A stretch of 61,113 nt of DNA. It comes from a virus. Its lineage: Duplodnaviria; Caudoviricetes. The position numbers and the translations under genes were made by a program. Below the pieces are notes generated by a model. The model did no database searches. It saw nothing but the letters and a program-made list of their open reading frames with translations, and was not told where the DNA came from. How positions within the stretch are numbered: position 1 is the first letter of the stretch; each line of letters begins with the position of its first letter. The stretch lies in IMG/VR virus record IMGVR_UViG_3300038308_000004, positions 1 through 61,113 of that record. The stretch is one strand, 5' to 3'. This document shows positions 5,864-59,500 of the stretch, in pieces.

Positions 5864-5869
5864 ACCTTG

Positions 5870-5939
5870 GCAGGCGGCATGGCTTTCGGGGGGGACTTGG
5901 AACCTCCGACTCCCGGGGCCTTCAGATCTCGCCGCCTGC
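5870..5939 (+). other. intergenic stem-loop after the tail tube gene
   Basis: GCAGGCGGC (5870) pairs with GCCGCCTGC (5931-5939); no U-tract. Confidence 0.45.
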
Positions 5940-5970
5940 CGCTTCAATCGCAGTCACGGCGGCTATCAAG

Positions 5971-24843: not shown

Positions 24844-25551
24844 TCATGCCTGGCAGATCAGGCAGGGCTCTCCCTCGGGCTCGGGGAAAAGGCAGAGATG
24901 GCTCTCCTGGGCCAGGCGGATCTGCCTCAGTGTCCGGCCCTGAGCCCATGTGAATCCGTTGCTTCTTTCCATACTTAGCCGCTCCCATTCCTCGGCTAAG
25001 CCGAAGAAATCGGGGTGGTGTTTATGAAGCCCCCTCCAGTCACCCACCCGCTGGAAGGGGCAACAGAAACAGGAGCAATTTGAGCGCCAGGAATAAATGG
25101 GATTTAGGGCGGCGTATTTCTTGCAAAGGGCGCTCGCTGCCCGCTTGTCCATACCAGCTTCGACCAAAGGATAGGAGACATCATGTTTGTAATCTCCCTT
25201 CGTCCGGATGCGGTGCGCTTCATCGGCACGGATACCAATATGAACAAGCGTATTTGGGAGAGTAAAAAATGCATTCATTGGTTTTTGCTTAAGCAAACGA
25301 GTACACCATCTAGCATGCCGAGACGGAATCATGAATCCGTAGTTGGCAAGATGCTGATAGAAGCTTCCGTTGCTCAGCACGATCAATTTGTGGCCGATCT
25401 GCCTCGCAAAGCGTGGAATGAACCACAAGGTTTCAGGCAGCTCACAAGAAGTATCTGAAAACACTAATTCAAATTCTACTCCCCTTTCATGTAGGAGTAA
25501 TGCAACTGCCGTGCTATCCGCACCGCCACTAAATGAGACATATTCGCTCAT
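24844..25551 (-). CDS. PAPS reductase family (PP-loop) protein
   Basis: VSFSGGADS, RWCTRLLK, GIRADE, SCFCCPF. Confidence 0.88.
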   Translation of the reverse strand: MSEYVSFSGGADSTAVALLLHERGVEFELVFSDTSCELPETLWFIPRFARQIGHKLIVLSNGSFYQHLANYGFMIPSRHARWCTRLLKQKPMNAFFTLPNTLVHIGIRADEAHRIRTKGDYKHDVSYPLVEAGMDKRAASALCKKYAALNPIYSWRSNCSCFCCPFQRVGDWRGLHKHHPDFFGLAEEWERLSMERSNGFTWAQGRTLRQIRLAQESHLCLFPEPEGEPCLICQA

Positions 25552-25555
25552 GCTC

Positions 25556-25963
25556 TTATCCTCCATGGCACGAAGAAAACGAATTGATATACCGCGCAGC
25601 TTCCGGTAACCCGTCGAAAACCTTACCGCCGTTGGTTTGCACCATTCGCGCCACCGCGCCAAGAGATTTCCATTGCCCGTCGTCGAATCTCAGCGCCCCA
25701 TCATTCCGCAGCCGCACAAACACGGTCTTCGAGGGTCGCTTATTGCTGTCATCCACCACCTCGGCAATCGAATACACTCCAGTCATGCGAGGCGTAATCA
25801 CGTACAGGCAGAAGTCGCATTCCTGCCGTTGCCGCAATTCTTCCGCTTGACATTCTGGAGTCCAGTCATCAACAACCGGGTTGAAATGTCCAATCGTCAG
25901 CAATGGCGCAAACTCGTCGCGCCATTGAGATTCGTTGCAGGTTCCGCCGAGAAAAACTTTCAT
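25556..25963 (-). CDS. nucleoside 2-deoxyribosyltransferase-like protein
   Basis: MKVFLGGTCN...WRD...FNPVVDDW...GVYSIAE; the frame is also open upstream to 26329. Confidence 0.75.
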   Translation of the reverse strand: MKVFLGGTCNESQWRDEFAPLLTIGHFNPVVDDWTPECQAEELRQRQECDFCLYVITPRMTGVYSIAEVVDDSNKRPSKTVFVRLRNDGALRFDDGQWKSLGAVARMVQTNGGKVFDGLPEAARYINSFSSCHGG

Positions 25964-30325: not shown

Positions 30326-30546
30326 TCGGAATCCTCCTCCTCAGATTCTATCATTTCAACTGTATGACATTCCCCTTTTAGATGAGGTCCCAACATAAGA
30401 CATTGACCGGGATAGCAACATCCTTCGTTCATCATCTCGCCTTCATCATAGAGCAGCATATTGCAAGCGTCTTCTCCACTATCCTCGTCAATGTTGAGCT
30501 CCCACTCCCATTGGCATGAGAGGGAGATTCCATCCTCGATCCTCAT
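30319..30546 (-). CDS. small acidic Cys-rich protein
   Basis: ATGA overlap with the radical SAM gene stop. Confidence 0.5.
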   Translation of the reverse strand: MRIEDGISLSCQWEWELNIDEDSGEDACNMLLYDEGEMMNEGCCYPGQCLMLGPHLKGECHTVEMIESEEEDSEC

Positions 30547-31346
30547 TTTCTTCCCCGATATGCCGCTGGCCGGCTCCACTTCCGGGCCAGCGCCTTCCAA
30601 TGCCAGTCGTATGGCGGCATCGCCTGGCAGCTATCAGCGGGCCTGTAAAGCTGCGCGAATGGGAGAAACCCCAGCGCATACACTCGCTCTAGCCGCGCCT
30701 CTGCCTCCTGAATCGAGCCCAGCCCGATCATGCAGTAGCACCGCTTTTTCTTGATGTCGAGCCATGTTAGCATCTCCGCTGCTCTTTGCAATGGCTTGAT
30801 CGCCGCAGCGGAATCACAGGCAAACCATACCCCTCCCAGCCGCGGCAGCCCTCGGATCAGGTCAATGTGCCAGGGCTGGAGCAAAGTGGCATCCAGGCCG
30901 CCACTGAACACGGCTCCCCGGCGCTGCTGGGAGAGCATATCGAAAACGGCCTCGATATGGGGGCGGGAGCAGGCCAGGAGGTTGTTATCAGCGATGATGT
31001 GCCCGGGCCGGATCGGGAGCTCCATGATGTTGCCCTCCCGCTTCGGCACTAGGCAAAAGGGACAGTGATGGGGGCAGCCCCGGCTGGTAAAGATGATGCC
31101 GGGCTTGATGAAGAGTCCGGGCTCAAAGTCGTCTCCGGGGTCATCGAAAGCCGGCCCTCCCAGGGTCACATGGGGGTAGAAAGCCCCCCAGGCGCGAGCC
31201 AAGCGCCGACTTTCGGGGATGTCCCAGGAAAAGACACACGACACTCGCACATCATCGTCTTTTGGCCGAAAGAGAGGAGGATCACCTACGAAGGCCAGAG
31301 GATCAGTAGGAGTGTATGAAGTCCTCCTCGGGAATACTCGGATCAT
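30543..31346 (-). CDS. radical SAM protein
   Basis: TSRGCPHHCPFC (CxxxCxxC), DNNLLA. Confidence 0.88.
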   Translation of the reverse strand: MIRVFPRRTSYTPTDPLAFVGDPPLFRPKDDDVRVSCVFSWDIPESRRLARAWGAFYPHVTLGGPAFDDPGDDFEPGLFIKPGIIFTSRGCPHHCPFCLVPKREGNIMELPIRPGHIIADNNLLACSRPHIEAVFDMLSQQRRGAVFSGGLDATLLQPWHIDLIRGLPRLGGVWFACDSAAAIKPLQRAAEMLTWLDIKKKRCYCMIGLGSIQEAEARLERVYALGFLPFAQLYRPADSCQAMPPYDWHWKALARKWSRPAAYRGRK

Positions 31347-34420: not shown

Positions 34421-34975
34421 TCATTTTCCCTCTCGTAGTGCCTCTTCTGCCCACTCCATATTTTGCTTCCTTTGCCCCTTGCCCTCGTCGCATCCCGGGC
34501 ACCCCACCCGCAGCCAAAACGGGCGCTTCTGCCCCCAGCGCCGGAACAAGTAGGGCTCCTTGACCCAGTAATATTCCACATAATTGCCGCACCAGGCACA
34601 ACGTTCCTCCGGGGGGCTGTCGGGATCGCAGGAGATGTCGGACTGAACCCAGTGAGGGTCCCAGACGCCGGGGTTGACGGCGTTGACGATGCCTCGAACA
34701 TCCTTCTTGCCCTCCAGGAAGTCGGCCAACTCTTTTTCCGATGCCATATCCTTGGGGATCGCCGGGGCATGCTCGCGGATTAGGGCCGCGAGGTTATCAT
34801 TCGGGTGGATCGATCGGACGGTACGGCAAATTTTGAGGATGGATTCCTCAAATTGCCAGTCAGAAAGGTCAGCAAGGATCTCCAGCCAAAAATCTTGGCT
34901 TTCTGGGGTTGGGTTGAGGCCGGGATGGGCCAGCGTAAGCCTGATCATTCCGTCTTTAAACGTCTTTCTTTCCAT
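34421..34975 (-). CDS. putative helicase loader/inhibitor, partner of the initiator
   Basis: Immediately after the O-like gene; W..IL.DL pattern; C-terminal CxxC pair. Confidence 0.5.
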   Translation of the reverse strand: MERKTFKDGMIRLTLAHPGLNPTPESQDFWLEILADLSDWQFEESILKICRTVRSIHPNDNLAALIREHAPAIPKDMASEKELADFLEGKKDVRGIVNAVNPGVWDPHWVQSDISCDPDSPPEERCAWCGNYVEYYWVKEPYLFRRWGQKRPFWLRVGCPGCDEGKGQRKQNMEWAEEALREGK

Positions 34976-35786
34976 CTCTCATCCTTTCCCTTTCTGCCTG
35001 TTTGGCGCGCACATCAGCCAGTACACGAGCGCGGGCCTCTGCCATTGCTGCGTCTTGTCCTATAGGTTGGGCCTTGCGTCCGTTGGGGCCAAATTCAACG
35101 GCCCTCCGATACCAGTTCCGTATCGTAGCTTTCCAGTCTACCATGGCTACTCCACGCCCATTAAAATTGTCTCGGCACTTTTCAAACTCTAAAGTGGCAT
35201 CAATTGAAGGCGTATTCTCGTTGGCCCATATTTTCATCTCTTCAAGGAGCGTGAGGGCTTCGGAACCTTCTGGGAAAGGAGTTTTTGTTAATCTCCTCTT
35301 TTTGGGGGCGGGAGGAGAAGCCTTTGCTTCTCTCTCTCTCTTTAGAGAGAGGTTTTTTTCTTTTGTATTATTTTCTTTTGTGGGTAAGGATTTCCTTACT
35401 ACCCCTGTTGGCTTTTCCTTACTACCTAGTAAGGATTTCCTTACTACCCTCTCAGGGGATACCCATGTCTCCCAATCCTTGTTAAATCTGTAGATAGAGG
35501 GGGGGGTAGTAAGGTTTTCCTTACTATGTAGTAAGGTTTTCCTTACTAGGATGTTTTTCTTGATGAGCCGCTCAATAGCATCCCAAACCGTCCATCTGGG
35601 AAACCCTGTTGCCTGTTGGAATTGGGTCAGGGAGATCATGTCTTCGCTCTTGTGCCACCCGTAAGTACGCCGGAGAACCACCATGAGGACACGAAACTCT
35701 GCCCCGGATAGCGGCATTTGGGCGAGTTTCTCCAGGATCTCATGGGCAATGTCTGTATGCCCATTCTCAGCTTGTGGCGATGCCAC
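34956..35786 (-). CDS. replication initiator, lambda O-like
   Basis: SPQAENGHTDIAHEILE...RRTYGWHKSEDMISLTQF...YRFNKDWETW; internal iterons. Confidence 0.9.
   Translation of the reverse strand: MASPQAENGHTDIAHEILEKLAQMPLSGAEFRVLMVVLRRTYGWHKSEDMISLTQFQQATGFPRWTVWDAIERLIKKNILVRKTLLHSKENLTTPPSIYRFNKDWETWVSPERVVRKSLLGSKEKPTGVVRKSLPTKENNTKEKNLSLKREREAKASPPAPKKRRLTKTPFPEGSEALTLLEEMKIWANENTPSIDATLEFEKCRDNFNGRGVAMVDWKATIRNWYRRAVEFGPNGRKAQPIGQDAAMAEARARVLADVRAKQAERERMRDGKKDV
35341..35548. other. putative replication origin: iterons plus AT-rich tract
   Basis: TAGTAAGG(A/T)TTTCCTTACTA at 35427, 35507 and 35529, variant at 35382, half-site at 35413; T-rich tract at 35341-35380. Confidence 0.85.
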
Positions 35787-36212: not shown

Positions 36213-36284
36213 TTCCGGGTCGTCTAGCTGGTAGGACGGCGGACTTTGAATCCGCAGACCCAGGTTCGAGCCCTGGCCCGGAAG
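36213..36284 (+). tRNA. tRNA-Gln (anticodon TTG), CCA not encoded
   Basis: Acceptor TTCCGGG/CCCGGAA; D-arm; anticodon arm GCGGA-CTTTGAA-TCCGC; T-arm CCAGG-TTCGAGC-CCTGG. Confidence 0.95.
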
Positions 36285-36294
36285 CTCTCCCCGG

Positions 36295-36728: not shown

Positions 36729-37526
36729 TCACCTCACGCTCGCCATAGGGATGGCATCCACCCCCACGACGAATGAGCAATTTCCCTGCTTGCAGACCTC
36801 CCGCCAGGTCTTCAACTGCTCAAGCTGGAGAAACTGGGCGAGGGAGAGCTGCATCTGGGCCTGATATGCCTGATCGGCCTTGGCCCGGCTCTCTTCGGCA
36901 AAGCGTCGCTGGTCTTCGGCCAGCTTTCGCTGCTGCTCCGTGAGTTGACGCTGTTGCTCAGCAGCCGTGGCAATCCTCTGATTCTTGATCGCGTCCGGGG
37001 GGTTGGCTTTCCCTACGGTCACCTGGATGAGTTTGATCGGGATCTTGGCCTCTTGGATGTATTTCTCCATCATGGCCGATACCTCCTGATCGATCTGCTC
37101 GATAGCCACGGTAGAGATCGCGGTTTCGTTCATCCCGTGCTTCCGCACGGACTGCCTGACCCGGTTGGCCAGCTCCTTTTCAAGATTGTTTTCGTACCAT
37201 TTAGGACCAAAATCCCTGACCAACCTGACGGAATCCATGACCTGAAGCCGGATGATGGCGTCGAAATCCAGAGGCACACCATCCAGGGACATCAAGTCAT
37301 CGAAATGGACCTTGTACTGTTCGGGAACCACGGAGACGTCCACTACATGGGTCGTGATGGCAATCACGGATCGGCCAGTCTTCACAGCCTCCGGGTAAAC
37401 GCCACCATGACCAAATAACCAAGGTTTCATTACCAGCACGGCTTCATGACCTGCGTCGGGGGACGCAAAGCCACATCCAGAAAGAAACAAAATCCCCATT
37501 ATTACCCCAATAAACCACTCTCTCAT
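36729..37526 (-). CDS. SPFH/band-7 (prohibitin-like) lipoprotein
   Basis: LSGC lipobox, PDAGHEAVLV, SLDGVPLDFD, coiled-coil C-terminus. Confidence 0.85.
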   Translation of the reverse strand: MREWFIGVIMGILFLSGCGFASPDAGHEAVLVMKPWLFGHGGVYPEAVKTGRSVIAITTHVVDVSVVPEQYKVHFDDLMSLDGVPLDFDAIIRLQVMDSVRLVRDFGPKWYENNLEKELANRVRQSVRKHGMNETAISTVAIEQIDQEVSAMMEKYIQEAKIPIKLIQVTVGKANPPDAIKNQRIATAAEQQRQLTEQQRKLAEDQRRFAEESRAKADQAYQAQMQLSLAQFLQLEQLKTWREVCKQGNCSFVVGVDAIPMASVR

Positions 37527-37694: not shown

Positions 37695-39059
37695 TTATGC
37701 CTCCTCCGCCGCCTTAGCGACACACTCCGGCCCGTATGGATACGAGACCCCGTTAACCGTCAACATGACGGGCATCCCTGTGTGCTGCTGGTGGCAGCCC
37801 TCGCAGTGATAGGAATCGGGGGAGTGGGTGGGGAGATCTCTCGATTGGGGGGACCCTTGGGTCTCCCAGGGATACTGCTTGATCTTTTCCCAGGCCCGGA
37901 AAAGAGGGAGGATCTCCCTCTGCCAGGCCGACACGAGGTACGTGAGCTTCTCCGATGGCACGCTGGCCAGGGAGAGTGTGCCACACTCATCCGGCCGGAG
38001 GTAGGCGGGATCCTGAGCGAGGAACCGGAGGAAGGCGCTTTCATCGATCTCCGCCTCCTGGAGAAAAATTACGAGCTGTCTCCGCCCTTCCCATGCGCGG
38101 AAGGCGGCCGCCGTCTCAGGTTTGGCGGCGCGGATGGCCTGGATTTTGGCGACCGGGAGATCGTGGAGATGGAGTTTGTCGTCCGAGCCGGCCTCGAGAT
38201 CTCCGCTGGCGGCCAGAAACTCCTTGAATAGCTCCCGGTCGATCCCGGACTCCCGTATCCATGCCTCCAGCCCCTCGCGGAGTTTGGCATCGGCGTCAGA
38301 GTCCTTGCTGTTGCCGGGGGCAGGGGGATCGGAGGGGGCTGCCTTGGTTCCTGCGGCCTTGGGGATCTCGGGGGGCTTCTCGCCCTTGAGCCAGGCCGCG
38401 AGGACTTCGGCAACCTCCTTGCCCGGCTTTTCGATCACTGCACCCTGAAGGGCAGGACAGCGGCTCTTGGAAATAACCAGCGTATTGGTGTAGTCGAGCT
38501 CGCCCACTACGTCGAACTCATGCTCCAGTCCATCCCGCTGCACAGGGGCCAAACCGACCTTGCGGATCACGGTCTTACCGCGATCGTCCTTTTCCTGCGC
38601 ATACTCGGTTTTGGTGCGCATGGTGACGATGACGTGGCACGCGCTGCCGGTGATAGCGTCTACCAGCGCGTTTTGGAGGGGCGTGACGTCCCGCCAGGCC
38701 ACGTAGCTGTTTTGGCTCTTACTCGCCTTTGCGGCTTTATCTACCAGCTCCAGTGCGCCGTCCTTCCCCATCCAGGCGTGGGATAGGGAATCGATGATCA
38801 GGATGGCATAGCCGGCGGCCTCAGCCTCCCGGATGGCGTCGATATATCGCTGAGGGTGGAAGCTCGAGAGCTCGCAGACATCGAACTCAAAGAGGTCCGC
38901 GTATTTGCTGGCGCTTCCCCGCTCGGTATCGATGAGTGCGATGGAGCCGCCCAGGCCGGTGGCGATCGCCAGGGCCGAGAAAGTTTTCCCCGATCCGCTG
39001 GGTCCGGTGAGGGCCATGCGCAACTTGGAATCCAGTTTTATCGCCTTCTTAAAGGCCAT
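37695..39059 (-). CDS. AAA_24/Sak4-like ATPase (recombination protein)
   Basis: GPSGSGKT Walker A, IDTERGS, IIDSLSHAW, QRDGLEHEFD. Confidence 0.88.
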   Translation of the reverse strand: MAFKKAIKLDSKLRMALTGPSGSGKTFSALAIATGLGGSIALIDTERGSASKYADLFEFDVCELSSFHPQRYIDAIREAEAAGYAILIIDSLSHAWMGKDGALELVDKAAKASKSQNSYVAWRDVTPLQNALVDAITGSACHVIVTMRTKTEYAQEKDDRGKTVIRKVGLAPVQRDGLEHEFDVVGELDYTNTLVISKSRCPALQGAVIEKPGKEVAEVLAAWLKGEKPPEIPKAAGTKAAPSDPPAPGNSKDSDADAKLREGLEAWIRESGIDRELFKEFLAASGDLEAGSDDKLHLHDLPVAKIQAIRAAKPETAAAFRAWEGRRQLVIFLQEAEIDESAFLRFLAQDPAYLRPDECGTLSLASVPSEKLTYLVSAWQREILPLFRAWEKIKQYPWETQGSPQSRDLPTHSPDSYHCEGCHQQHTGMPVMLTVNGVSYPYGPECVAKAAEEA

Positions 39060-39186
39060 GGTCTCTTTCCTCCTTGCATTTATCATATCGGGGGTGGGGA
39101 GGACATCGCGGCCGACGGACGCCTCCCCATCCCCGGCTCATCCCCTATCAGCGCCGCGCGGATAACGGGGGCGAGATCGTTTCCTC

Positions 39187-39519
39187 TCATGAGAGTCGCT
39201 CCAATCGAGCGATCTCCCAGTCCTCATCTGCGGTCCCGAGGAGCCTCCCCTTGAGCGCGGGGTCCCCGAGCCGATACCGCAGCCGCACTACCATCGCCAC
39301 GTCCCCAGGGGCCATGGCCGACAGCTCGCGGCTGATGGCGGGCCGGATGCCCAGCCATTCCTCGATTTTCGCGGCGGTCTCCTCGTAGCCCACCCGGCTC
39401 TCGTAGGGGCCGGAGCGGATGAAATCGCGCAGGTCGTTCTTCGTCGCGGGGCTATAGCGATAATCGCCGTAAGCTCCGGCGGCGATGACGGCGGAATTGA
39501 GGAGCAGTCTACGGGCCAT
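39187..39519 (-). CDS. DUF1874/STIV-B116 family protein (AcrIII-1-like)
   Basis: LLNS...SRVGYEETA...LG...SR...PGD.A.V.RL..RL follows the AcrIII-1 layout, with GY in place of GH. Confidence 0.7.
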   Translation of the reverse strand: MARRLLLNSAVIAAGAYGDYRYSPATKNDLRDFIRSGPYESRVGYEETAAKIEEWLGIRPAISRELSAMAPGDVAMVVRLRYRLGDPALKGRLLGTADEDWEIARLERLS

Positions 39520-40048
39520 AAATCTTCTCCTCTCCAAATCGAAATCCCCGTTTTTTGTACCATTTCTCCCACGCCTCCTGGGCTCGGTAAAAGAGAAATC
39601 GGTATTGACCCAGTTGGGAGCTGGGCTGGAGAAATCCCATGTCCTTCAATCGCCGCCAATTTCGGCGATGCCCATTATCGATGTTGTCCCGGCGGGAAAA
39701 GATCTCGTCGGGCCAGATATAGCAATCCTCTATTGGCCCGCATTGTTTGGCCTCGAAAATAAGGATGCGGAGTGTCCGGGCCTGCGCATCGGTGATCGTC
39801 TCAGTACCTCCTTGGCCGCCGTCCTCAACTGATACAAGCCGAGCAGCGGTTCGTACATTGCGCGATTCATTGAGCCAGATCCTCAGATCCCGTTCGGCTT
39901 GATCTCGGCTGGCCCGGACCGGCAGGTATTTAGAGACGACTCGGCGCAGGGCCCCATTGGGCTTTTGGGTATAGGTCGCCCAAGCCTTCCCGCCCGAGAT
40001 GCCGTCGCTGACAAAAAAATGCTCTTCTTCCCGCTCATTCCGCTTCAT
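39509..40048 (-). CDS. hypothetical protein
   Basis: 179-aa ORF, ATGA-coupled to the upstream gene, GGAGG RBS. Confidence 0.6.
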   Translation of the reverse strand: MKRNEREEEHFFVSDGISGGKAWATYTQKPNGALRRVVSKYLPVRASRDQAERDLRIWLNESRNVRTAARLVSVEDGGQGGTETITDAQARTLRILIFEAKQCGPIEDCYIWPDEIFSRRDNIDNGHRRNWRRLKDMGFLQPSSQLGQYRFLFYRAQEAWEKWYKKRGFRFGEEKIYGP

Positions 40049-40710
40049 CTCAGCACCTCCTTGGCCGCCTTTCGCAACTCCCGCGCCCAGTGTCTGTAAA
40101 CCTCGCCGAGATCATCGAGGATCTTGGCCAGGGCGACAGCCTTCGCTGCCGACGTGAAACATTCCCGCAGCAGCGGCTCGGGCTCGGTGGGGATGGGATC
40201 GGGAGGTGGGGGTTTGATCCCCCGTGGCGCAATCGAGGGGAGGCAGGGCTTCTCCCGGATCTCCGCCGCCATCGCTCCCGGGGTTCCGCAGACGACGCAG
40301 AAAAAGCCGCCGTCGGGGCGGTGCAAAGGGAGGATGGTGCCATGGGGATGGAGGTGCTGGGTGCAGGGGCAGGGCTGGCCGCCACTGAGCGATTGCCCGC
40401 AGCGGGGACAAAAAGGGCGGGGGTCCTGGCCGGTCTCCCGAAATGCCTGGCAGCTCGGGCAGATGGGGCCTCCCGCAGACGGATGGAGGATCTCCCCCGG
40501 CAGCGGAGGCATCCCGCAATAGCTGCAGGTAGCCCGCTCGCAGATCTCGCAGGTGCGGGTGGCGAACCGGGGGTCAGGGCTCTCGGTCCCCAGGACCTCC
40601 GCTCCGTCGAGGTGATCGGCACACCGCCAGGCGAAGGGGCGGTCGCCGTTGAGACCGGGGCCGACCCGGCATAAGTACATTTGACGGGATATTGTGGAAT
40701 GTGGTAACAT
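40045..40710 (-). CDS. multi-Zn-finger hypothetical protein
   Basis: Several CxxC pairs; start may be 40680. Confidence 0.6.
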   Translation of the reverse strand: MLPHSTISRQMYLCRVGPGLNGDRPFAWRCADHLDGAEVLGTESPDPRFATRTCEICERATCSYCGMPPLPGEILHPSAGGPICPSCQAFRETGQDPRPFCPRCGQSLSGGQPCPCTQHLHPHGTILPLHRPDGGFFCVVCGTPGAMAAEIREKPCLPSIAPRGIKPPPPDPIPTEPEPLLRECFTSAAKAVALAKILDDLGEVYRHWARELRKAAKEVLR

Positions 40711-40941
40711 AATAGCACTCCTAAGCTGTTGGGTTTGTCTCGAGGGGCTTGCGGTTATTGCCTGACCGCAAGCCCTTTGTCTTTCTGGGAGATTAGGCTT
40801 GGCCCGTGGGCCTGACCGCGCCGCCTCCCCCTTGCTCCAAAAAACCTGGCATCGTCAAGGCCCCACCGGGTGACCAGCCCTTGGCGTGGCCCCTTTCTCC
40901 TGGTCCCGACCAGCCCGCCCACCCGGCTGGCCGTCTGACGT

Positions 40942-41229
40942 TCACATGGCATGGCCCTCCTCTCCTGATCCCAGCGGTTCACCAGCTCCACAGTACTGGC
41001 CTTCCGCCGGGAGATTGTCTGAAAGCCCTTGCCAAACCAACTCCTCCAGCCGCAGGAGGATCACCTCGAACTTCGATCCCCGCCGCGGCCGCTTCGATTT
41101 TCCCCAATAGCGGTGGATCACTGCGCGGAGACTATCCTCCGACCAGCCCTCCTCCCGGATGAGATCCCGGAGAGTCCTGCCGGGACCCAAGATCTTCCTC
41201 CGGGCTATTTTCCATTCGGGCAAAATCAT
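40942..41229 (-). CDS. small DNA-binding protein (Cro/Ner-like, tentative)
   Basis: Divergent from the XRE gene; GAGGAG RBS; HTH-like TLRDLIREEGWSEDSLRAVI. Confidence 0.5.
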   Translation of the reverse strand: MILPEWKIARRKILGPGRTLRDLIREEGWSEDSLRAVIHRYWGKSKRPRRGSKFEVILLRLEELVWQGLSDNLPAEGQYCGAGEPLGSGEEGHAM

Positions 41230-41251
41230 TGCTATTCTTTCTCCTCGATCT

Positions 41252-41269
41252 TATAGTATTAAGACTATA
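41252..41269. promoter_or_regulatory. operator-like palindrome between divergent regulators
   Basis: TATAGTATTAAGACTATA, a dyad with one mismatched pair. Confidence 0.55.
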
Positions 41270-41356
41270 GCTGTAGATTATACCAAAAGGAAAAAAGAAA
41301 TCAACCCCAAAATTATCGAAAGGATGAAAATGTGGGGGTCAGAGGAGGCACTGGAA

Positions 41357-41710
41357 ATGGAGGGAGAGAGGGTGAGGTGTGCTGTGGGCGTGCTGTCCCG
41401 CGCCGAGATCGATCACCGCTGCCGCGTGGCGGCGATCCTCAGGCACTGGCGGGAGGAGGCGGGGCTGAGCCGGGAGGAGCTAGCGGCCCGTATAAACGTG
41501 TCCGCGATAACGGTCTACCGCTATGAGGAGCGACTCCGGGGGGAGCCGATTCCCCGCCTGCCGAGGATCGACTACATGGTGCGGTGGGCGCTGGCGTGCG
41601 GCAGCGATCCCCACCGGATCCTCGACGCCGAGATATCGTTTGAGGTTTCCCGGGGTTCGGGCAGGGGCAGGGCTGCGCCATATTTGCAGCAGCATCCCGC
41701 CTTGATGTGA
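41357..41710 (+). CDS. XRE-family HTH repressor-like protein
   Basis: LRHWREEAGLSREELAARINVSAITVYRYE; GAGGAGG RBS. Confidence 0.8.
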   Translation: MEGERVRCAVGVLSRAEIDHRCRVAAILRHWREEAGLSREELAARINVSAITVYRYEERLRGEPIPRLPRIDYMVRWALACGSDPHRILDAEISFEVSRGSGRGRAAPYLQQHPALM

Positions 41711-45825: not shown

Positions 45826-47202
45826 CTACTTCTCCGGGGCCTTGAGCTCGCCCCGGTAGGCCCTGCTCCCGATCCCCCAGTGGCTCAGGGCCTTCTTCAC
45901 GGCGTCCGTGATCGCCCCCTTCAGGGCGTCGGCGCCGTCCCCGTTGACGCTGCCCCCGACCACCGGCCCCCGGCAGAACCACTCGCCGGAGTCGAGCCGG
46001 ATCGAGAGCTGCAGGAGGACCATGGCACGGTGGGCCTTTCCGCTGTCGCCCGCCTTCTCAATCTGGTGGTCGAGGATCTCGTACCGCCAGGCATCGAGCC
46101 CCAGCCCCTCGTTGACGGCATCCAGGACGTACTGGGCGCCGTAGCCGGTGAATCCCTTCTGGTCAGTCTCGACGGCAACATTGCCGAAGGAGACCAGGAT
46201 CTCGTTGATCCGGGCGATGCGGACCGTCAGAGCCCGCACCGCCGCCCACTTCCGGGCGGATTCGGCGGTTGCGGCCCGGATCTCGGCGGTCTCCCGCCGG
46301 AGCCTCTCTGTCTCGGCCCGGTAGGCATCGAGCTGCTCCGGGGTCCAGGAGTAGGGGTCGGTGGCCTCCCGTTCGGCCCGGATGGCCCTCGCGACCGCCG
46401 CGTCTCGGGCCAGTTGCTCCCGGCCCGCCTCCCGCATTTGCTCCAGGGCGTCCGCCGAAGCCTCATCAGCACATTCCTGGCAGATGAGCCCGCTGCCCTC
46501 GGGGATCTGCGTGGGGATCATCTCGGAGGCGGGCAGAAGCGCCCCGCACTCCATGCAGGGGTCCAGGGGGTCGCCCGGGGTCAAGGGGATCTCCGCCTCA
46601 GTCTGGGGGGCCATGTCGGCCGCGGGATGGGGAGAGTGTGGAACCTCGATCGCTGGGGCGGTATCGCTGGCGGCCTTGGCCTTGCCCCAGCCGAGCTTGC
46701 GGGCCGCCTCCTGGTCGCCGAACATAGCGGCCGCCTCGAGGCTGATCCGGGCCTTCGGGGAGAGGCCGGGGGCCTCCGCCAGCGCGTCCTGGTCCCCGAG
46801 GGTGGGGTCTGCGCTGGTGGGTGCCTCCACACCGAACGCCCCCAGGATGGCCTCCACCATCCGCTCCCTCTCGGGCCGAGGGTCGGAGGGGATATAGGGA
46901 GTAGCCTCCGGGTAGAGGGTGGGGACCAGCCGGGGAGCCTCCGCTGGCGCTGGCGCGGGCTGAAGGCTCGCCTGGACCGCCAGGATGTGCTTGCAGGTCC
47001 AGGAGGGGTCCGTCTCCCGGTGCTGCCGCTGGTCCTGGCAGGAACAGGACCAGCCCATGGTTGCGCCCATCGTTTCATGGCGGACCTGATGGCGCAGGCC
47101 GGGGCGGCTCTCGCTGGTCACGAGCCAGGTTTCGTGGCCGTGGGGCTCTACGGCTAGAGTTTCGGCCTTGGCCGCTCGTGCGGCCCTTTCTGTTTGGGTC
47201 AT
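45826..47202 (-). CDS. SWIM Zn finger plus Rad52/Sak-family ssDNA annealing protein
   Basis: WSCSCQD...CKHILAV at the N-terminus; YVLDAVNE.LG...W...DALKGAITDAVKKALSHWGIG at the C-terminus. Confidence 0.85.
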   Translation of the reverse strand: MTQTERAARAAKAETLAVEPHGHETWLVTSESRPGLRHQVRHETMGATMGWSCSCQDQRQHRETDPSWTCKHILAVQASLQPAPAPAEAPRLVPTLYPEATPYIPSDPRPERERMVEAILGAFGVEAPTSADPTLGDQDALAEAPGLSPKARISLEAAAMFGDQEAARKLGWGKAKAASDTAPAIEVPHSPHPAADMAPQTEAEIPLTPGDPLDPCMECGALLPASEMIPTQIPEGSGLICQECADEASADALEQMREAGREQLARDAAVARAIRAEREATDPYSWTPEQLDAYRAETERLRRETAEIRAATAESARKWAAVRALTVRIARINEILVSFGNVAVETDQKGFTGYGAQYVLDAVNEGLGLDAWRYEILDHQIEKAGDSGKAHRAMVLLQLSIRLDSGEWFCRGPVVGGSVNGDGADALKGAITDAVKKALSHWGIGSRAYRGELKAPEK

Positions 47203-47391
47203 CGCATTTTCTCCTTGCCCTGGAGCCTGCTGGTATGCTCCAGGGCTGATAATTGGTGTGCAGCGCTGATTGTCACCTGGCCTCCTGCCTGCCGCAAACA
47301 GGTGAGGCGGGCCTTTGGTTTTATCCTCTGCGGCCCGGGCTTGCCACCGGCCAGCCGCATTACCCGCCCCGGAGGGCGGTGGCTCTGCGAT

Positions 47392-47520
47392 TTAACCTTG
47401 CACGGCCATACAATTTGGGCACAGGGCCGGACCGCTGGCCGGGTGTACGAGGCAATCATCTCCGCAGACCTCGCAGATCGCCTCGATCTCTTCCTCGTCC
47501 TCCTCTTCGGCTTTCATCAT
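47392..47520 (-). CDS. tiny acidic Zn-ribbon protein
   Basis: MMKAEEEDEEEIEAICEVCG...CPNC; overlaps the stop of a 46-aa upstream ORF (MAPRKNMISEF...). Confidence 0.45.
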   Translation of the reverse strand: MMKAEEEDEEEIEAICEVCGDDCLVHPASGPALCPNCMAVQG

Positions 47521-47676
47521 TTCATAGCGGTTGCGGATTTCCTGGGGGATGCCGGCCCGCTCTGGCGGCCGCTGGGCTGCCAGGCCATCCGCCAGGCTTT
47601 TTCTGCTGCCCTGTCCTGCGCTAAAAATTCCGAGATCATATTTTTTCTTGGTGCCATCTTTCTGTCCCTCCCCTTC

Positions 47677-48075
47677 CCCCCAGCTTTTTCGGGCCTCCCG
47701 GGTCATTCCGGGAGTGGCTTTAATGCTGGGGGGGTGCCCCAGGGGCCGAAGCCCCTTCAAGCCTGCCTTATGGATACACGGGGAGCAGTCTGTCCCCGTT
47801 TCTTCCCCGGTACTCGATCGGGCGGGCCTTGCGCCCGAATCCATTGCATCCGCATCCCCCCCCCCGAGAGTTCAGGGGGCCGCCACAATAACCACAGCGG
47901 CCCCACTTGAAGGGGCAGTCATGGTCCTTCGGGTCATCCCCGAAGGAGGAAAAAATATCCTCCCCAATGTAGCTCCCGCAGTCGATACAATAATAACTTG
48001 TCATTTTTTTCTCTCTCCTTCTTCCCCCAGCTTTTTCGGGCCTCCCGGGGTATTCCGGGAGTGGCTTTAATGCTG
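47677..48075. repeat. 52-bp structured direct repeat (2 copies plus a partial third at 48131-48153)
   Basis: 47677-47728 and 48024-48075 differ only at 2 nt in the hairpin loop. Confidence 0.9.
47768..48004 (-). CDS. small Cys-rich protein
   Basis: CIDC, HDC, CGYC, CGC; AAGGAG RBS just after the repeat. Confidence 0.6.
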   Translation of the reverse strand: MTSYYCIDCGSYIGEDIFSSFGDDPKDHDCPFKWGRCGYCGGPLNSRGGGCGCNGFGRKARPIEYRGRNGDRLLPVYP

Positions 48076-50251: not shown

Positions 50252-50795
50252 AATTGTAGGTTATTCAGAAGAATCTCCAGACCAGCTCTTGGCATCCCCT
50301 TGGAATTGGAGGATACATCCAAAAATACAGCAGGACGCATTGAGTGCCATTCTTGAGGATGTCGGCATAGTTCAAAACATTGTCTGCAACCGCACTACGG
50401 GTCATGTCGTGGACGGCCATCTGCGAGTAATGTTGGCTCTGCGGAACAATCAGCCGCTTGTGCCCGTAACCTGGATTGAGGTATCTGAAGCCGAAGAGAA
50501 ACTTATAATATCTTCCCTCGACCCCCTGGCGGCCATGGCTGCTGCTGACAAGGAGCGCCTGGATGCGTTGCTGCGGGAGATCCCGCCGGTGGACGCGCGG
50601 CTTCAGGAGATGCTGGCGGAATTGGCAAAGAAAGAGGGCCTTTATTTGGATGAGTCGGACGGTACCGATACCATGGCTGCCGTTATCCCACAACAATATA
50701 TCATCATGATTGAATGCGCCGGCGAGGCGGAGCAATCTACTCTTCTGGAACGGCTCTTGTCCGAGGGGATCCAATGCAAAGCGTTGATATCATAA
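50235..50795 (+). CDS. ParB-like N-terminal domain protein
   Basis: NWRIHP...VG.VQ.I..N..TGHVVDGHLR. Confidence 0.8.
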   Translation: MNWQNRIVGYSEESPDQLLASPWNWRIHPKIQQDALSAILEDVGIVQNIVCNRTTGHVVDGHLRVMLALRNNQPLVPVTWIEVSEAEEKLIISSLDPLAAMAAADKERLDALLREIPPVDARLQEMLAELAKKEGLYLDESDGTDTMAAVIPQQYIIMIECAGEAEQSTLLERLLSEGIQCKALIS

Positions 50796-51961
50796 GAAGC
50801 TCCTCAATTCAACGGACTCCGCAGGTCGCCCAAGTTGAGGGCATCTTCGATATTCCTCCCTCGGCTCGCTCGGAGGAGCGATGGACGGTCAATCTGGATC
50901 TGCCCGAAAAATGGAACGTGGGCGCGATCGTGGGACCATCCGGGAGCGGAAAAACGACGATTGCTCGCGAACTCTTCGGGGTCAATCTTATCTCCGGCTG
51001 GTCCTGGCCGGAGGATAAGAGCATCTTGGACGGCTTTCCCTCGGCAATGAGCATCAGAGAGATCGTAGACCTCCTCTCTTCCGTGGGATTCTCCTCTCCC
51101 CCCTCCTGGGTCCGCCCCTTCCGTGTGCTCTCCAACGGCGAGCAGTTCCGTGTAAACCTTGCTCGCACCTTGGCCGAGATGCCCGCCCTTGCCGTGATTG
51201 ATGAATTTACCAGTGTCGTGGATCGTACAGTGGCGCAGATTGGGAGTGCGGCGCTGGCCAAGACAGTCCGCCGAAGGGGCCAACGTTTCATTGCTATCAC
51301 TTGTCACTATGACGTGATTAGTTGGCTGGAACCCGAATGGGTTTATCAGCCGCATGTGAATCAACTTGATCGGGGGCGTCTTTGGTGCAGACCGAAAATC
51401 ACATTGGAGATTCGCCGGGTGCATCGTAGTGCTTGGGGAATGTTCCGCAAGCATCACTATTTAGATACCAAACTTCATCCGGCCGCCGTTTGCTTCGTGG
51501 CTTTCTGGGAGGGTGTCCCGGTGGCGTTTGCTTCTGTTTTGCATTTTCCCCATCCCAAAGCTCCCAACGTGAAGCGGGAGCATCGAACGGTCTGCTTGCC
51601 GGACTTTCAGGGTGTGGGAATCGGCAATGCTGTGAGCGACTTGGTTGGTTCACTCTGCCGTGGACTTGGTTGCCGCTATGTCTCGATCACTTCTCATCCA
51701 GCCATGATCCAGACTCGCAATCGTTCTCAGAACTGGCGGATGTATTCGAGACCAACTCATCAAGGCAAGACGCTCCCCAATGCCCCAAGAGGATTCGCAG
51801 TTTCGATGAAGAATGGCGGAAGCAGTGGTTGTAGCAAAGGTCACTCCATGCGTCTGCGAGCAAGCTTTGAATATGTGGGTCCCGCGATGGATCAAGTTTT
51901 GGCGAGAGCGCTATGGAGCGGTGCTGAGATTCCGACTGCAGCACTCCAAGCACCTTCCTAA
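50774..51961 (+). CDS. ABC-type ATPase fused to a GNAT-like acetyltransferase
   Basis: GPSGSGKT, LSNGE, IDEF, CH; C-terminal KHHYL...RTVCLPDFQGVGIG. Confidence 0.88.
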   Translation: MQSVDIIRSSSIQRTPQVAQVEGIFDIPPSARSEERWTVNLDLPEKWNVGAIVGPSGSGKTTIARELFGVNLISGWSWPEDKSILDGFPSAMSIREIVDLLSSVGFSSPPSWVRPFRVLSNGEQFRVNLARTLAEMPALAVIDEFTSVVDRTVAQIGSAALAKTVRRRGQRFIAITCHYDVISWLEPEWVYQPHVNQLDRGRLWCRPKITLEIRRVHRSAWGMFRKHHYLDTKLHPAAVCFVAFWEGVPVAFASVLHFPHPKAPNVKREHRTVCLPDFQGVGIGNAVSDLVGSLCRGLGCRYVSITSHPAMIQTRNRSQNWRMYSRPTHQGKTLPNAPRGFAVSMKNGGSSGCSKGHSMRLRASFEYVGPAMDQVLARALWSGAEIPTAALQAPS

Positions 51962-52834: not shown

Positions 52835-54424
52835 ATGCGCATGCCGACCTTGACCCCAGACCTGATCCAGAACCTGCGCCAGGCCCTGCCCCGAGAGATC
52901 GAGGCCGAGCTCGCCAGGCGTGGCCTCTCCATCCCCCAGGCCCTGGCCCACCGGGAGGGCCCTGCGCGATCGGCCTTCGCTCAGTCCCTCCTCCAATTCC
53001 GCGCAGGCGAGATCTACCCCGACGAGATGCTCAGGCGTTGCGAGGAGCAGCTTGGCCTCAAACTCCCCACCGAGCCCGTTTGCAGCAACCACCAGGCGCC
53101 GGGGCAGTATTTTCTAGACTCCATTTCCAGCAGGGACGGCGGCCAGCCCATTGTCTGTGCCTGCAGGAGCGGGGGCAAGACCGAGCTCACGGCGTTGATC
53201 GCCCTCATCGAATCCGTGGCCTATAGTGACTGTGGCACGCGGATACTGGGTGGCAGCGAGACTCAGAGTCTGGGGCTCTATGAGCATCTCACGGAGTTCA
53301 TCAAGCATGGTGACCTCTATGATTTGCTCGACGGCGAGCCGCTGACGACGCGGGTGAAATTCAAAAACGGTAGCCGTGCACGCATCCTAGCCGCAAGCCA
53401 AAGAAGTGTCCGCGGCCCCCATGTGCCGCGCTTGATCCTGGACGAAGTTGATGAGATTGAGCCCGAGATCTACCGGGCGGCGTTGCCGATCCTGACATCC
53501 ACATCTGACATCCCGGGCACGCTAAGAATCCTCTCGACCATGAACCGGCCCGATGGCCTGATGGGCCAGATCATGGAGGAGGGCGTTGACGCCGGCCGAC
53601 AGTTCTATACCTGGTGCGTTTTCGATGTCATGGAGCGATGCGAGGGTCGGGACTGCAGCAAGTGCGTGCTCTGGGAGGACTGCCAGGGCAAGGCCCAGCG
53701 GGCCAACGGCTATTACAAGGTCGATGACGCCGTCAAACTCCGCACCGCTCCCGGCTTCTGCCGCGAAGACTGGGAAAGCCAGATGCTGTGTTTGAAACCC
53801 GGACACAAGAGCTTGATCTGGTCCGGCTATAACGAGCAATTTCACCTATATACCCCCCCTGCAGACTTCGACTTTCGAGAGTTCCGCAAGACCCTGCGTC
53901 GGGTTCTGGCTGGGGTGGACTGGGGCTATGAGAACCCTGCCACCATTATTGTTGTAGGCGAGGACAGCAGGGGCAGATTGTGGGCAATAGAAGAATTCTA
54001 TAAAGCACATATTTTGGATGAAGATCTGGGGGAGGAAGCCAAGCTCCTGCACGATAAGTGGGGCATAGAGATGTTTTATTGTGACCCCGAGGATGCGGGC
54101 GCGATCGCAAAATGGCGACGCCCCCCCCTGAGCCTCCCTGTGCGCAGGGCGAAAAATGCCGTGGAGAAGGGAATCTCCGCCGTGGCCTCCCGCTTCCAGT
54201 TGCTGCCGCCCCACAACCTGCCCAGGATCTACATCTTCAACTCCTTGACCAATTTACGCCGGGAGATCAAAGGCTATCGGCGGCGGGGCGACGGTGTGCG
54301 CAGTTCCAGTCTACGGGGGGATAAGGCCAAGGAGGACATCATCAAGAAAAATGATCATGGTTGCGACGCCTTCAGGTATGTTATAATGGCGTTTGATCGG
54401 CCGGGATATGCGGGGGGGTATTGA
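52835..54424 (+). CDS. terL: terminase large subunit
   Basis: CRSGGKT, VRGPH, LILDEVD, LST, GVDWG, YCDP, DHGCDAFRY. Confidence 0.93.
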   Translation: MRMPTLTPDLIQNLRQALPREIEAELARRGLSIPQALAHREGPARSAFAQSLLQFRAGEIYPDEMLRRCEEQLGLKLPTEPVCSNHQAPGQYFLDSISSRDGGQPIVCACRSGGKTELTALIALIESVAYSDCGTRILGGSETQSLGLYEHLTEFIKHGDLYDLLDGEPLTTRVKFKNGSRARILAASQRSVRGPHVPRLILDEVDEIEPEIYRAALPILTSTSDIPGTLRILSTMNRPDGLMGQIMEEGVDAGRQFYTWCVFDVMERCEGRDCSKCVLWEDCQGKAQRANGYYKVDDAVKLRTAPGFCREDWESQMLCLKPGHKSLIWSGYNEQFHLYTPPADFDFREFRKTLRRVLAGVDWGYENPATIIVVGEDSRGRLWAIEEFYKAHILDEDLGEEAKLLHDKWGIEMFYCDPEDAGAIAKWRRPPLSLPVRRAKNAVEKGISAVASRFQLLPPHNLPRIYIFNSLTNLRREIKGYRRRGDGVRSSSLRGDKAKEDIIKKNDHGCDAFRYVIMAFDRPGYAGGY

Positions 54425-54945: not shown

Positions 54946-56498
54946 CCGATTTTTTCGCCAGCATCGCCGAGAAGGTCGTCCGTGGCGGCCTGACCGAGCT
55001 CGCCCAAAAAGATGACGTTCTGCGTTTGCAGCAGATCACCAAAGCCTGGGACTTCTATCGCGGCGACCAGATCCAGTACCTGGAGCAGGAGGACCGGGCC
55101 TTCGTCCTGCGCCATCCCGAGATCCGCAAAGAGGAAGGCGACGCCATCCTCTCCCGCCTCAGAGTCCACCTCAACTATACCAAGCTCATAATCAATCGAT
55201 ACCTCAACGGCGTCTACGGCCTTGAGACCCTGCGCAAAGTCGCCGACGAATCCAATCATATCCTGCTGGAGCAGATCTGGAAGCGCAACCGCATGCGCGG
55301 GTTTATGACCGGAGTTCAGCGTGTGTCCGAGATCGAAGGCACCTGTGCCGTAATCCCTCGCTGGAAGGAAAAACTCAAGGCCATCAAATATGAGAAGTAC
55401 GGCGCTCAGCACATCATCCCCATCTCCCAGCCCGACGACCCCACGAGCCTCCACGCCCTAATCCTATCCTGGCCGGCCGAGAATAAGTGGGGCCTAATCC
55501 CGGATGTGATCTCCGATACCCTGCCCGGGAGTGGGGGCGTCTGGAAATATGCCTGGAACGCTGTGACCGGCCGCACCGCCGACCTCCGTGGCGTGCAGAA
55601 ATACACCGAGATCTGGACCGAGGAGTGGGTCGAGGCCTACCTGGGCAAGAAGCTCCTGACCTCCATCCCCAACCCCTACGGCGTCATCCCCTTCGCCGTC
55701 TTCCGGGCCGAGGAGGATGATGGCACCTTCTACGGCCAGACCAACATCCACGACGTCGTCGCCGTCAACCACATCATCAACCGCATGGTCAGCGACCTCG
55801 AAGAGATCATCCGCGTCCACGGTTTCAGTTTACTTTTTGTCAAGGGGGACATGGTGGACACGCTGATCATGCGGCCGACATCGTTCCTGAAGATGGAAGC
55901 GGATAAGGAAAGCAACTCCGATGCCAAATACTTGACCCCCAATTCCCCTATCGGCGAGATCCAGGAATTCGTGCAGTGGCTCGTGGCCCGCATGGCCGAT
56001 GTTTCCCAGGTCCCCCAGGCCGCTATTGCCAGCAGCGACTTCCCGGAGTCCGGGTTCGCGCTGACCATCCGCTGGCTGCCCTACACGCAGGCGCTGGCCC
56101 AGAAGCGACTGCTTTACAAGGACGCCGAGGATGACCTGGCCATCAAGACGCTGTTGGTACAGCGGGCACATACCGGCCAGGGCGACCCCGACAACTGCGA
56201 CCTGAGCCTGGAGTTCAAGGACCGCGATTTCTTGCCGAAACCGGAGGCCGAGGAGCGCGCCAGGAATGAATTCGCCCTGCTCCATAACGTCATTACGCCG
56301 ATCGATCTCCTGCGAGAGCGATTCCCCGACCTGGACGAGGAGCAGTTGGAGGAGAGGTTCTGGCGCAATGTGGCCTTCAACCGGCAACTGCAGGAGCGGG
56401 GGATAGAGAGCGATGAGGCCTTGGCGGCAGCGGGGGCTCGCAAAATGAAAGCGCGGGCGGAGGCCGAGGCTCAGGAGCTGGAGACGGAGGAGGAGTAA
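54942..56498 (+). CDS. portal protein (SPP1 gp6-like); CTG start proposed, TTG 55026 is the alternative
   Basis: FYRGDQ, NYTKLII, NPYGVIPF, SGFAL; follows terL. Confidence 0.88.
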   Translation: MTDFFASIAEKVVRGGLTELAQKDDVLRLQQITKAWDFYRGDQIQYLEQEDRAFVLRHPEIRKEEGDAILSRLRVHLNYTKLIINRYLNGVYGLETLRKVADESNHILLEQIWKRNRMRGFMTGVQRVSEIEGTCAVIPRWKEKLKAIKYEKYGAQHIIPISQPDDPTSLHALILSWPAENKWGLIPDVISDTLPGSGGVWKYAWNAVTGRTADLRGVQKYTEIWTEEWVEAYLGKKLLTSIPNPYGVIPFAVFRAEEDDGTFYGQTNIHDVVAVNHIINRMVSDLEEIIRVHGFSLLFVKGDMVDTLIMRPTSFLKMEADKESNSDAKYLTPNSPIGEIQEFVQWLVARMADVSQVPQAAIASSDFPESGFALTIRWLPYTQALAQKRLLYKDAEDDLAIKTLLVQRAHTGQGDPDNCDLSLEFKDRDFLPKPEAEERARNEFALLHNVITPIDLLRERFPDLDEEQLEERFWRNVAFNRQLQERGIESDEALAAAGARKMKARAEAEAQELETEEE

Positions 56499-58513: not shown

Positions 58514-59500
58514 TTGCCTAACCAATACATGGAAGTCGCAACCGGAACCTTAGGCGGGTTTATGGTCCTGGACTATACTTTCGGCATTGATTTGCTCCTG
58601 GATGCCGAGCCCAGGATGAGGTTTGCTCAATATGTTACGCGCGTCGACAGGCCGGGCGCGAAAGCTGGAGAATCCATTACTGTCCCGACCATTGGGACGA
58701 TGGACCTCAGCGGTACCACGGCTCTAACCGAAGGCACGGCCATCACGGTCTCCAGGCTGACGCTGGGCAGCGCCAACGTCAGCATTTCCGAGTACGCGCG
58801 GTCTCTAGGCTGGACGGGCAAGTTAGACGCCATGAGCTGGTTTGCTTTGGACCCGCAGCTCAAGCGCAAATTGCTCGATTCCTACGCCAAGACCATCGAC
58901 GCCCTGGCCAGGGCCGCCTACTTCGGCGCGGCTACGACCGGCACCTACGTCACCGTAGCCCTAGGCCCGACGACAGCGCCGGGCACGGTCTACAGCAGCG
59001 GCACGGGTACCGGGACCGCCACCGATGAGTTGACGTACAACTGCATCGAGCATGCCGTAGACCAGCTCAGGGGCCGCGATGTGCCGCCCTTCGAGGATGA
59101 GGGTGGAGAATACTATGTCGGGATCTTCACCCCGGCAGCATTGCGGGGTCTGAAACATGACCCCAATTACCAAAACGCCCATTTGTACTCGGGCGCCAGG
59201 GCGCTGCTGCGGGGCGAAGACGGGGAGCTCGAAGGGGTGCGGTTCCTGACGACTACCAACATCCCCGCATATGCTCCCGCCGGAGGGGCTACGACATATC
59301 CGCATGGGGTCATCTTTGGGATGGACGCCGTAGGTCGGGCGGTGGCGATGGAGATGGAGCTCCGGGTCGAGCTCGACAAGGACACGGACTTCGGCCGGCA
59401 AAAGGCCATCGCTTGGGTGTCCCTGGAGGGTTTCGGGCCCCTGATGACGGCACACGTCCAGGAAGTCCAGTGTCTCGCCGGCAAGTACACGGTACAATAA
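58514..59500 (+). CDS. major capsid protein (N4-gp56-like, HK97 fold)
   Basis: GESIT.P, LTEG, GE.G.LEGVRF..T, DFGR; position after scaffold. Confidence 0.88.
   Translation: MPNQYMEVATGTLGGFMVLDYTFGIDLLLDAEPRMRFAQYVTRVDRPGAKAGESITVPTIGTMDLSGTTALTEGTAITVSRLTLGSANVSISEYARSLGWTGKLDAMSWFALDPQLKRKLLDSYAKTIDALARAAYFGAATTGTYVTVALGPTTAPGTVYSSGTGTGTATDELTYNCIEHAVDQLRGRDVPPFEDEGGEYYVGIFTPAALRGLKHDPNYQNAHLYSGARALLRGEDGELEGVRFLTTTNIPAYAPAGGATTYPHGVIFGMDAVGRAVAMEMELRVELDKDTDFGRQKAIAWVSLEGFGPLMTAHVQEVQCLAGKYTVQ

Follow-up and report, generated by a model that had tools for sequence, protein, structure and literature searches.

The gene and its predicted fold

The 61,113-base IMG/VR provirus record IMGVR_UViG_3300038308_000004, called the window below, encodes on its reverse strand a small DUF1874 family protein (here, the target). 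Tyrosine (Tyr45) occupies the position at which the AcrIII-1 ring nucleases have a catalytic histidine. The gene is the fourth open reading frame (ORF) of a leftward early or replication operon that starts at a divergent helix-turn-helix (HTH) region, and this position suggests early expression (Table 1). Judged by its alignments, the target, conserved and phage-borne, belongs to a new, Tyr-type clade of the DUF1874 fold; it does not have the AcrIII-1 histidine and keeps the aligned residues of the ligand pocket.

The protein sequence begins with MARRLLLNSAV and ends with LERLS. An alternative TTG start at position 39537 is possible and would lengthen the ORF; the ATG at 39519 is preferred because it matches the N-termini of the homologs and follows a Shine-Dalgarno-like sequence. 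The 179-residue ORF upstream ends within the start of the target gene, and this overlap of 11 nt suggests translational coupling. The G+C content at third codon positions (GC3) is 0.79, similar to the adjacent genes.

Pfam assigns the target to PF08960 (STIV_B116-like, formerly DUF1874) with a score of 29 bits (cut-off 26, E 1.2e-6). A sequence-only reading of the window had proposed a 110-residue DUF1874-like ORF with the motif SRVGYEETA, and its coordinates, length, motif and family were all correct by ORF reading and Pfam. NCBIfam gave no match at E <= 10, and PHROGs only a weak one (phrog_5063, E 5e-4), to a family of no known function.

Several alignments place Tyr45 at the catalytic histidine, as had been claimed from the letters alone. 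With phmmer, SRVGYEETA of the target aligned to SAIGHQATA of AFV3-109 (2J6B). A profile built from 108 single-domain relatives (alignment A2) matched AFV3-109 (E 3.1e-20), Csx1-Crn2 (8e-14), STIV B116 (3.5e-9) and SIRV1 gp29 (2.7e-8 and 5e-7). In five of five printed alignments (AFV3-109, three of Csx1-Crn2, STIV B116) the G-Y of the family fell on G-H of the reference or, in the entry for the H495A mutant of Csx1-Crn2, on G-A. The gp29 sequence (SIRV1 ORF114, from the public SIRV1 record) was mapped by hmmalign, which equated H47 with Y45, S49 with E47, T50 with T48, R66 with R64, Q81 with R79, R85 with R83 and E88 with D86. The gp29 residues S49 and Q81 are accordingly not retained in the target (E47 and R79). 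N8 of the target corresponds to N8 of gp29 by eye only, the N-terminus lying outside the alignment. The match of tyrosine to histidine in the DUF1874 references is far beyond chance.

The modeled target has the DUF1874/AcrIII-1 fold. The AlphaFold2 model reached a mean predicted local distance difference test (pLDDT) score of 92.7 and a predicted template modeling (pTM) score of 0.85. Foldseek returned 15 matches in the PDB at E <= 0.001, and the rows shown were all DUF1874 structures (AFV3-109, Marinitoga Csx1-Crn2, SIRV1 gp29 and STIV B116). SIRV1 gp29, with which the sequence-only reading had suggested a structure comparison, is thus among them.

Two copies of the target were predicted to pair (ipSAE 0.78 versus 0.00 for the best control, contact agreement of at least 97%, partner pLDDT 86), with an interface formed by residues 9-24, 79-82 and 102-109. 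Of the solved pairs, 20 of 30 attain the mark used for a dimer, as does 1 of 23 single chains. Because solved DUF1874 dimers exist, the pass may reflect memory and is read as likeness rather than as independent proof.

Extent and conservation of the Tyr type

A word-indexed search collected 24 proteins including the query, 23 of them with G-Y and one, the most distant, with G-H. In an exhaustive HMMER search of 1.84 billion cluster representatives, 304 proteins matched at E <= 1e-3, 67 of them at E <= 1e-10; the best 150 of the 304 were listed. The pooled proteins that filled 75 or more of the 107 profile columns, with one row each, gave 169 rows, mostly cluster representatives at 50% identity. 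The Tyr45 column contained 160 Tyr, 6 His, 1 Phe, 1 Leu and 1 Cys, proportions in which the Tyr type is over-represented because the ranking of the list followed likeness to a Tyr-type query. At the 50% identity level, the Tyr-type family comprises some 160 clusters or more. G-Y was also found in all ten homologs on genome or viral contigs, and in a second homolog from the phylum genome sample.

On a tree of 170 rows, only two to three changes between tyrosine and histidine are needed. Strict monophyly of the Tyr clade is not claimed, because the resolution of this tree is poor (11 of 167 branches starred). We take tyrosine to mark a large clade of mostly viral proteins and not to be a lesion. 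The structural part of the sequence-only interpretation stands (a viral protein with the DUF1874 fold and tyrosine at the histidine site); what had escaped it is that tyrosine marks a clade, that a remodeled lid loop and a near-invariant lysine accompany it, and that the nearest named profile is the PADLOC "Csx16" model, which scores His-type members highest. Viral members make up 47-71% of the nearest Atlas clusters, which are PF08960 families. By tblastn, the target had no match at E <= 1e-3 among the isolated phages of INPHARED or the plasmids of PLSDB.

Among the 160 Tyr-type rows, the aligned pocket residues N8 (0.93), S41 (0.96), G44 (0.94), T48 (0.84), R64 (0.94), G72 (0.98), D73 (0.96), R83 (0.96) and E102 (0.92) are strongly conserved. 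Other positions differ between the two types. Position 47 is E, Q or D in 0.81 of the Tyr rows versus A, N, V or S in the His rows, and the lid carries [DN]86 (0.70) and P87 (0.81) versus E-G. Lys90 is present in 0.93 of the Tyr rows, versus leucine in five of the six His-type relatives. The exception is P0078, which combines histidine with D-P and lysine and looks, in sequence, like an intermediate between the His and Tyr types. A near-exclusive choice of tyrosine over phenylalanine, together with a new, near-invariant lysine in the loop that in gp29 closes over the ligand, would be expected were the hydroxyl and the amine to take part in the chemistry.

Longer relatives contained, by Pfam, only PF08960, ribbon-helix-helix (RHH) or unknown domains, and no CARF or HEPN. 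One of them (P0067) is an RHH_1-DUF1874 fusion, and at one related locus (L011) an RHH gene (5766-6002) overlaps the start of a Tyr-type homolog (5998-6333). These two arrangements are reminiscent of anti-CRISPR/anti-CRISPR-associated (Acr-Aca) operons. Eight relatives carry, fused to the Tyr-type domain, an all-helical domain of about 95 residues (L-[IV]-C-[DE] ... D-x-K-W-x-V), which is N-terminal in P0041, P0046, P0054, P0055, P0075 and P0176 and C-terminal in P0039 and P0102. This domain had no Pfam match and no PDB sequence match, Foldseek on a two-domain model matched the DUF1874 half only, and neither the window nor the related loci contain the domain. The recurrent helical and RHH fusions hint at a regulated or two-part counter-defense module. 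A candidate tandem DUF1874 duplication in P0175/P0176 was rejected, as P0176 consists of the helical partner domain and DUF1874, while the N-terminal half of P0175 has no assigned domain.

Operon, provirus and related loci

The features of the target gene, its operon and the provirus are collected in Table 1. The promoter-like site is likely the early promoter of the target's operon, facing leftward from the HTH region. A GC-rich hairpin of 17 bp (40741-40779) lies between the 95-residue and 221-residue ORFs and could be a terminator or attenuator.

Table 1. Coordinates of the target gene, its operon and other provirus features within the 61,113-base window.
Feature	Position	Strand	Remarks
Tyr-type DUF1874 protein CDS (P0001)	39187..39519	-	110 aa + TGA stop (39187-39189)
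Motif S41-R-V-G-Y45-E-E-T48-A49 (SRVGYEETA)	39373..39399	-	Equivalent of S-x-I-G-H-x-x-T in AcrIII-1/Crn2
Tyr45 codon TAC	39385-39387	-	
Lid-loop segment R83-L-G-D86-P87-A-L-K90-G91	39247..39273	-	Lys90 codon 39250-39252
Shine-Dalgarno-like GGAGAGGAG	39527..39535	-	7 nt upstream of ATG at 39519, read from sequence
Upstream ORF, 179 aa, no family	39509..40048	-	TAG stop at 39509-39511
Cys-rich ORF, 221 aa, no family	40045..40710	-	Leftward operon member
95-aa ORF	40942..41229	-	Early operon
Promoter-like TTGATT-16-TATAAT	41277..41304	-	10/12, TG extension; consensus scan only
HTH regulator gene	41159..41710	+	Divergent from operon
AAA_24 / Sak4-like ATPase gene	37695..39086	-	Downstream gene; recombination module
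SPFH lipoprotein	36729-37526		
tRNA-Gln, anticodon TTG	36213-36285	+	Phage-borne, between replication and recombination genes
Replication O-like protein	34956-35786		
SNF2-family helicase, 1173 aa	42461-45982	-	With intein-like insert
Tape measure	6789-12554		
Terminase	52835-54424		
Portal	55026-56498		
Major head protein	58514-59500		

A Pfam scan of 32 window ORFs between 27798 and 60585 found no cas family. At the gathering threshold, the window gave no match to the "DUF1874 motif" RNA of Rfam (PMC5737381). Other features of the provirus were seen in passing. In the SNF2 helicase, the N- and C-lobes flank the intein-like insert, which Pfam Intein_splicing matches at residues 469-816 (28.3 bits versus a cut-off of 35.8). 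A type-P5 twister ribozyme (RF02684, model positions 1-58) lies within the phage at 47335-47389 on the minus strand (54.3 bits versus a gathering threshold of 37.6, E 1.6e-8), in the region of an ORF at 47194-47910 on the plus strand. Immediately upstream of the packaging genes, a 415-residue protein (50714-51961, plus strand; phrog_11143, E 7e-100) carries both an ABC-type ATPase signature and a GNAT acetyltransferase domain. A protein resembling 3'-phosphoadenosine-5'-phosphosulfate (PAPS) reductase (24844-25662, minus strand; phrog_424, E 6e-44) and a radical-SAM-like protein (30543-31346, minus strand; phrog_9298, E 8e-19) may form a phage DNA- or nucleotide-modification module.

Homologs of the target were also followed to their own loci. 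A search of genome contigs contributed one locus and a metagenome search with alignment A1 seven, three of them too short for context. For the 14 related loci together, 150 of 151 selected ORFs were scanned with Pfam, and no Cas protein was found among these 150, in an annotation that is incomplete since the greedy choice of ORFs displaced some real genes in the GC-rich loci L004, L005 and L007. The neighbors comprise primase-polymerase/VapE, SNF2 helicase, DNA methylases, RecT, PD-(D/E)XK nuclease, integrases, HNH, small terminase and RHH/HTH regulators; the 14 loci are phage-like or like other mobile genetic elements. Seven neighboring proteins of the window, compared by tblastn with all related loci, found nothing, and there is no conserved gene partner. 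As no neighbor genes are shared, the target would appear to move as a single cassette.

A host with type III CRISPR or similar signaling had been implied by the sequence-only reading. Two metagenome-assembled genomes (MAGs) of one phylum carry a Tyr-type homolog and were compared in this respect. One (G220) has Csm1/Cas10 matches at 337 and 250 bits, on a different contig, and the other (G001) only a sub-threshold, Cmr2-like match at 54 bits; two MAGs carry no statistical weight either way.

Interpretation and comparison with known ring nucleases

We tentatively favor the reading, held with somewhat less than even confidence, that the target is a dimeric phage anti-type III ring nuclease using Tyr/Lys chemistry. 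The homodimeric DUF1874-fold protein would enclose the cyclic tetra-adenylate (cA4) made by the Cas10 of a host type III CRISPR system and would open the cA4 ring, switching off the cA4-activated effectors early in infection or upon prophage induction. Tyr45 would take the place of the general acid of AcrIII-1 (H47), and with Lys90 of the lid, and perhaps Glu47, it would form an alternative, metal-independent acid/electrostatic pair for transesterification by the 2'-OH. Transesterification of RNA of the same type is carried out by RelE and the tRNA-splicing endonuclease via Tyr, Lys and Arg residues. The analysis itself shows the viral context, the fold, which residues correspond and how far the clade is conserved; we infer the ligand, its cleavage, the roles of tyrosine and lysine and the anti-CRISPR effect from the fact that the pocket residues are kept, tyrosine is selected over phenylalanine, and Lys90 and position 47 change together with it, and because the known relatives (AcrIII-1, Csx16 and Csx1-Crn2) are all cA4 ring nucleases.

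Several points weigh against this proposal. Tyrosine (pKa ~10) is a weaker acid than protonated histidine, and the placement of Tyr45 and Lys90 near the scissile phosphate is proposed from sequence rather than from coordinates. No Tyr-type domain was fused to a CARF/HEPN effector or found beside cas genes, in the longer relatives or the 14 loci, so that the link to the ligand comes from homology. The IMG/VR record consists of the provirus only, with no host DNA. In the gp29 study, H47 is called the "absolutely conserved" general acid, and the H47A variant lost activity more than 2500-fold (10.1101/778746). SIRV2 gp37, a close homolog of gp29, was reported not to be an anti-CRISPR in native infection and to bind a host lysine methyltransferase (10.1101/2023.01.10.523387).

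The loss of the catalytic histidine could also mean that the protein is a sponge. The lid of the dimer would close over cA4 (or another cyclic oligoadenylate) and sequester it with no cleavage, and the tyrosine hydroxyl and Lys90 would add binding contacts. The H47A variant of gp29 still binds and fully buries cA4 and co-crystallizes with it (10.1101/778746), the aligned ligand-contact residues are conserved, and viral cyclic-nucleotide sponges are cited as a precedent in PMC12409355. A sponge should, however, tolerate phenylalanine or other residues at position 45, yet tyrosine was found in 160 and phenylalanine in 1 of the 169 rows. The invariant lysine that appears alongside tyrosine looks catalytic, stoichiometric sequestration is costlier than catalysis, and the literature searched, as far as its text was available, mentions no DUF1874 sponge. 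Overall, we consider this explanation, the main rival, rather unlikely from the sequences at hand. Less probable still is a fold retargeted to cA6, cA2 or a messenger of the cyclic oligonucleotide-based antiphage signaling system (CBASS), Thoeris or Pycsar, which would make the target an anti-defense protein against a system other than one using cA4. The clade-specific changes do cluster in the pocket-forming motif and the lid (positions 45, 47, 86-87 and 90), there is no cas linkage in the 14 loci, and the available text on Csx15 reports a broad-specificity ring nuclease bridging CRISPR and CBASS. Nevertheless, the aligned gp29 contacts to cA4 (T50, R66 and R85) are kept, and the characterized relatives named in PMC12409355 and 10.1101/778746 are all cA4-specific.

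The methyltransferase precedent of SIRV2 gp37 would fit a protein that acts on no nucleotide messenger at all, either as an inhibitor of a host protein or as an early-operon protein that binds nucleic acid or has a regulatory function. Such a role could also accommodate the RHH linkage seen in P0067 and L011 and the helical domain that eight proteins carry before or after the Tyr-type domain. RHH linkage is, however, equally typical of Acr-Aca operons, and what is conserved corresponds by alignment to the residues of a ligand pocket and not to a surface patch; we regard this role as improbable, to the same degree as retargeting. The idea of a decayed, non-functional AcrIII-1 remnant draws on the loss of the histidine only. 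It is contradicted by the 304 representative clusters at E <= 1e-3, by listed relatives with an intact frame and strongly conserved motifs, by a GC3 of 0.79 that matches the neighbors and by the model pLDDT of 92.7. We therefore consider decay extremely improbable and, because the clade is conserved, effectively refuted.

An altered-chemistry ring nuclease and a non-catalytic sponge, both raised by the sequence-only reading, appear still to be the two best readings. AcrIII-1 is the reference case of a virus that beats type III CRISPR by destroying cA4, and His47 has been treated as defining. With the pocket kept, tyrosine always present and a new lysine, the Tyr type would be either a second catalytic solution in the same fold or an enzyme turned sponge. 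It is nearly an even call whether Tyr-type DUF1874 proteins are a widespread, unrecognized phage anti-signaling family with a Tyr45/Lys90 pair, whose members would be the first His-independent ring nucleases or the first DUF1874 sponges. With the Tyr clade included, a broader profile could be used to search uncultured bacterial phages for anti-type III genes. At present such genes go unnoticed or are labeled merely as hypothetical: the three clusters looked up were named "hypothetical protein" or unnamed. In the accessible text of the literature on Csx16, AcrIII-1, DUF1874 and Crn2, we found no published description of a Tyr-type DUF1874 protein. Homologs with a mutated H47 had been deliberately removed from the published AcrIII-1 phylogeny (10.1101/778746).

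The best named hidden Markov model (HMM) for the target is PDLC01147 "Csx16" of PADLOC, matched over the full length with 47.1 bits (E 7.9e-13). It also matches 99 of the 108 members of alignment A2 and has a match in the B. subtilis control genome. Of the six His-type relatives, P0078 scores 55.6 bits and the other five 92-100 bits; among 48 scanned members of the Tyr type, scores lie at 18-64 bits for 45, and three had no match. Because the His-type relatives outscore the Tyr-type ones, PDLC01147 describes a His-type sister group. The Pfam family PF09652 (Cas_VVA1548), which we take to be the original Csx16 family, did not match the target at E <= 10 or anything in the two MAGs with homologs; in 401 genomes of the phylum of G001 it gave one sub-threshold match, with an internal stop. 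Csx16 was shown to be a cA4-specific ring nuclease (PMC12409355). Unlike Csx16, the Tyr-type loci show no cas neighborhood (14 related loci).

The Crn2 domain of Marinitoga Csx1-Crn2 (8Y7G, 8Y7F and 8Y6Z), whose association with cA4 is taken from the PDB titles, is host-encoded, fused to Csx1, located in a type III locus and equipped with His495. The target, unlike this domain, stands alone, is phage-borne and has tyrosine.

The closest comparison is with AcrIII-1 itself (SIRV1 gp29, 6SCF and 2X4I; AFV3-109, 2J6B; STIV B116, 2J85; Pfam PF08960). In gp29, cA4 is contacted by R66, T50, S49, N8, S11, N13 and Q81, and R85 locks the lid over the ligand (10.1101/778746). Like AcrIII-1, the target is a virus-encoded protein of about 110 residues, here from a provirus, and a predicted homodimer with the motif S-x-[IV]-G-X-x-x-T. 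It also keeps aligned equivalents of the contact residues T50 and R66 and of R85, at a sequence identity of just 12-21% to the solved DUF1874 structures. In contrast to AcrIII-1, it has Tyr45 in both the printed alignments and hmmalign where gp29 has the general acid His47, its clade has Glu, Gln or Asp where gp29 has S49, and the lid of the clade reads R-x-x-[DN]-P-x-x-K-G versus R-L-E-E-G. Finally, the tailed-phage genes of the provirus point to a bacterial host, whereas the solved viral AcrIII-1 members are archaeal.
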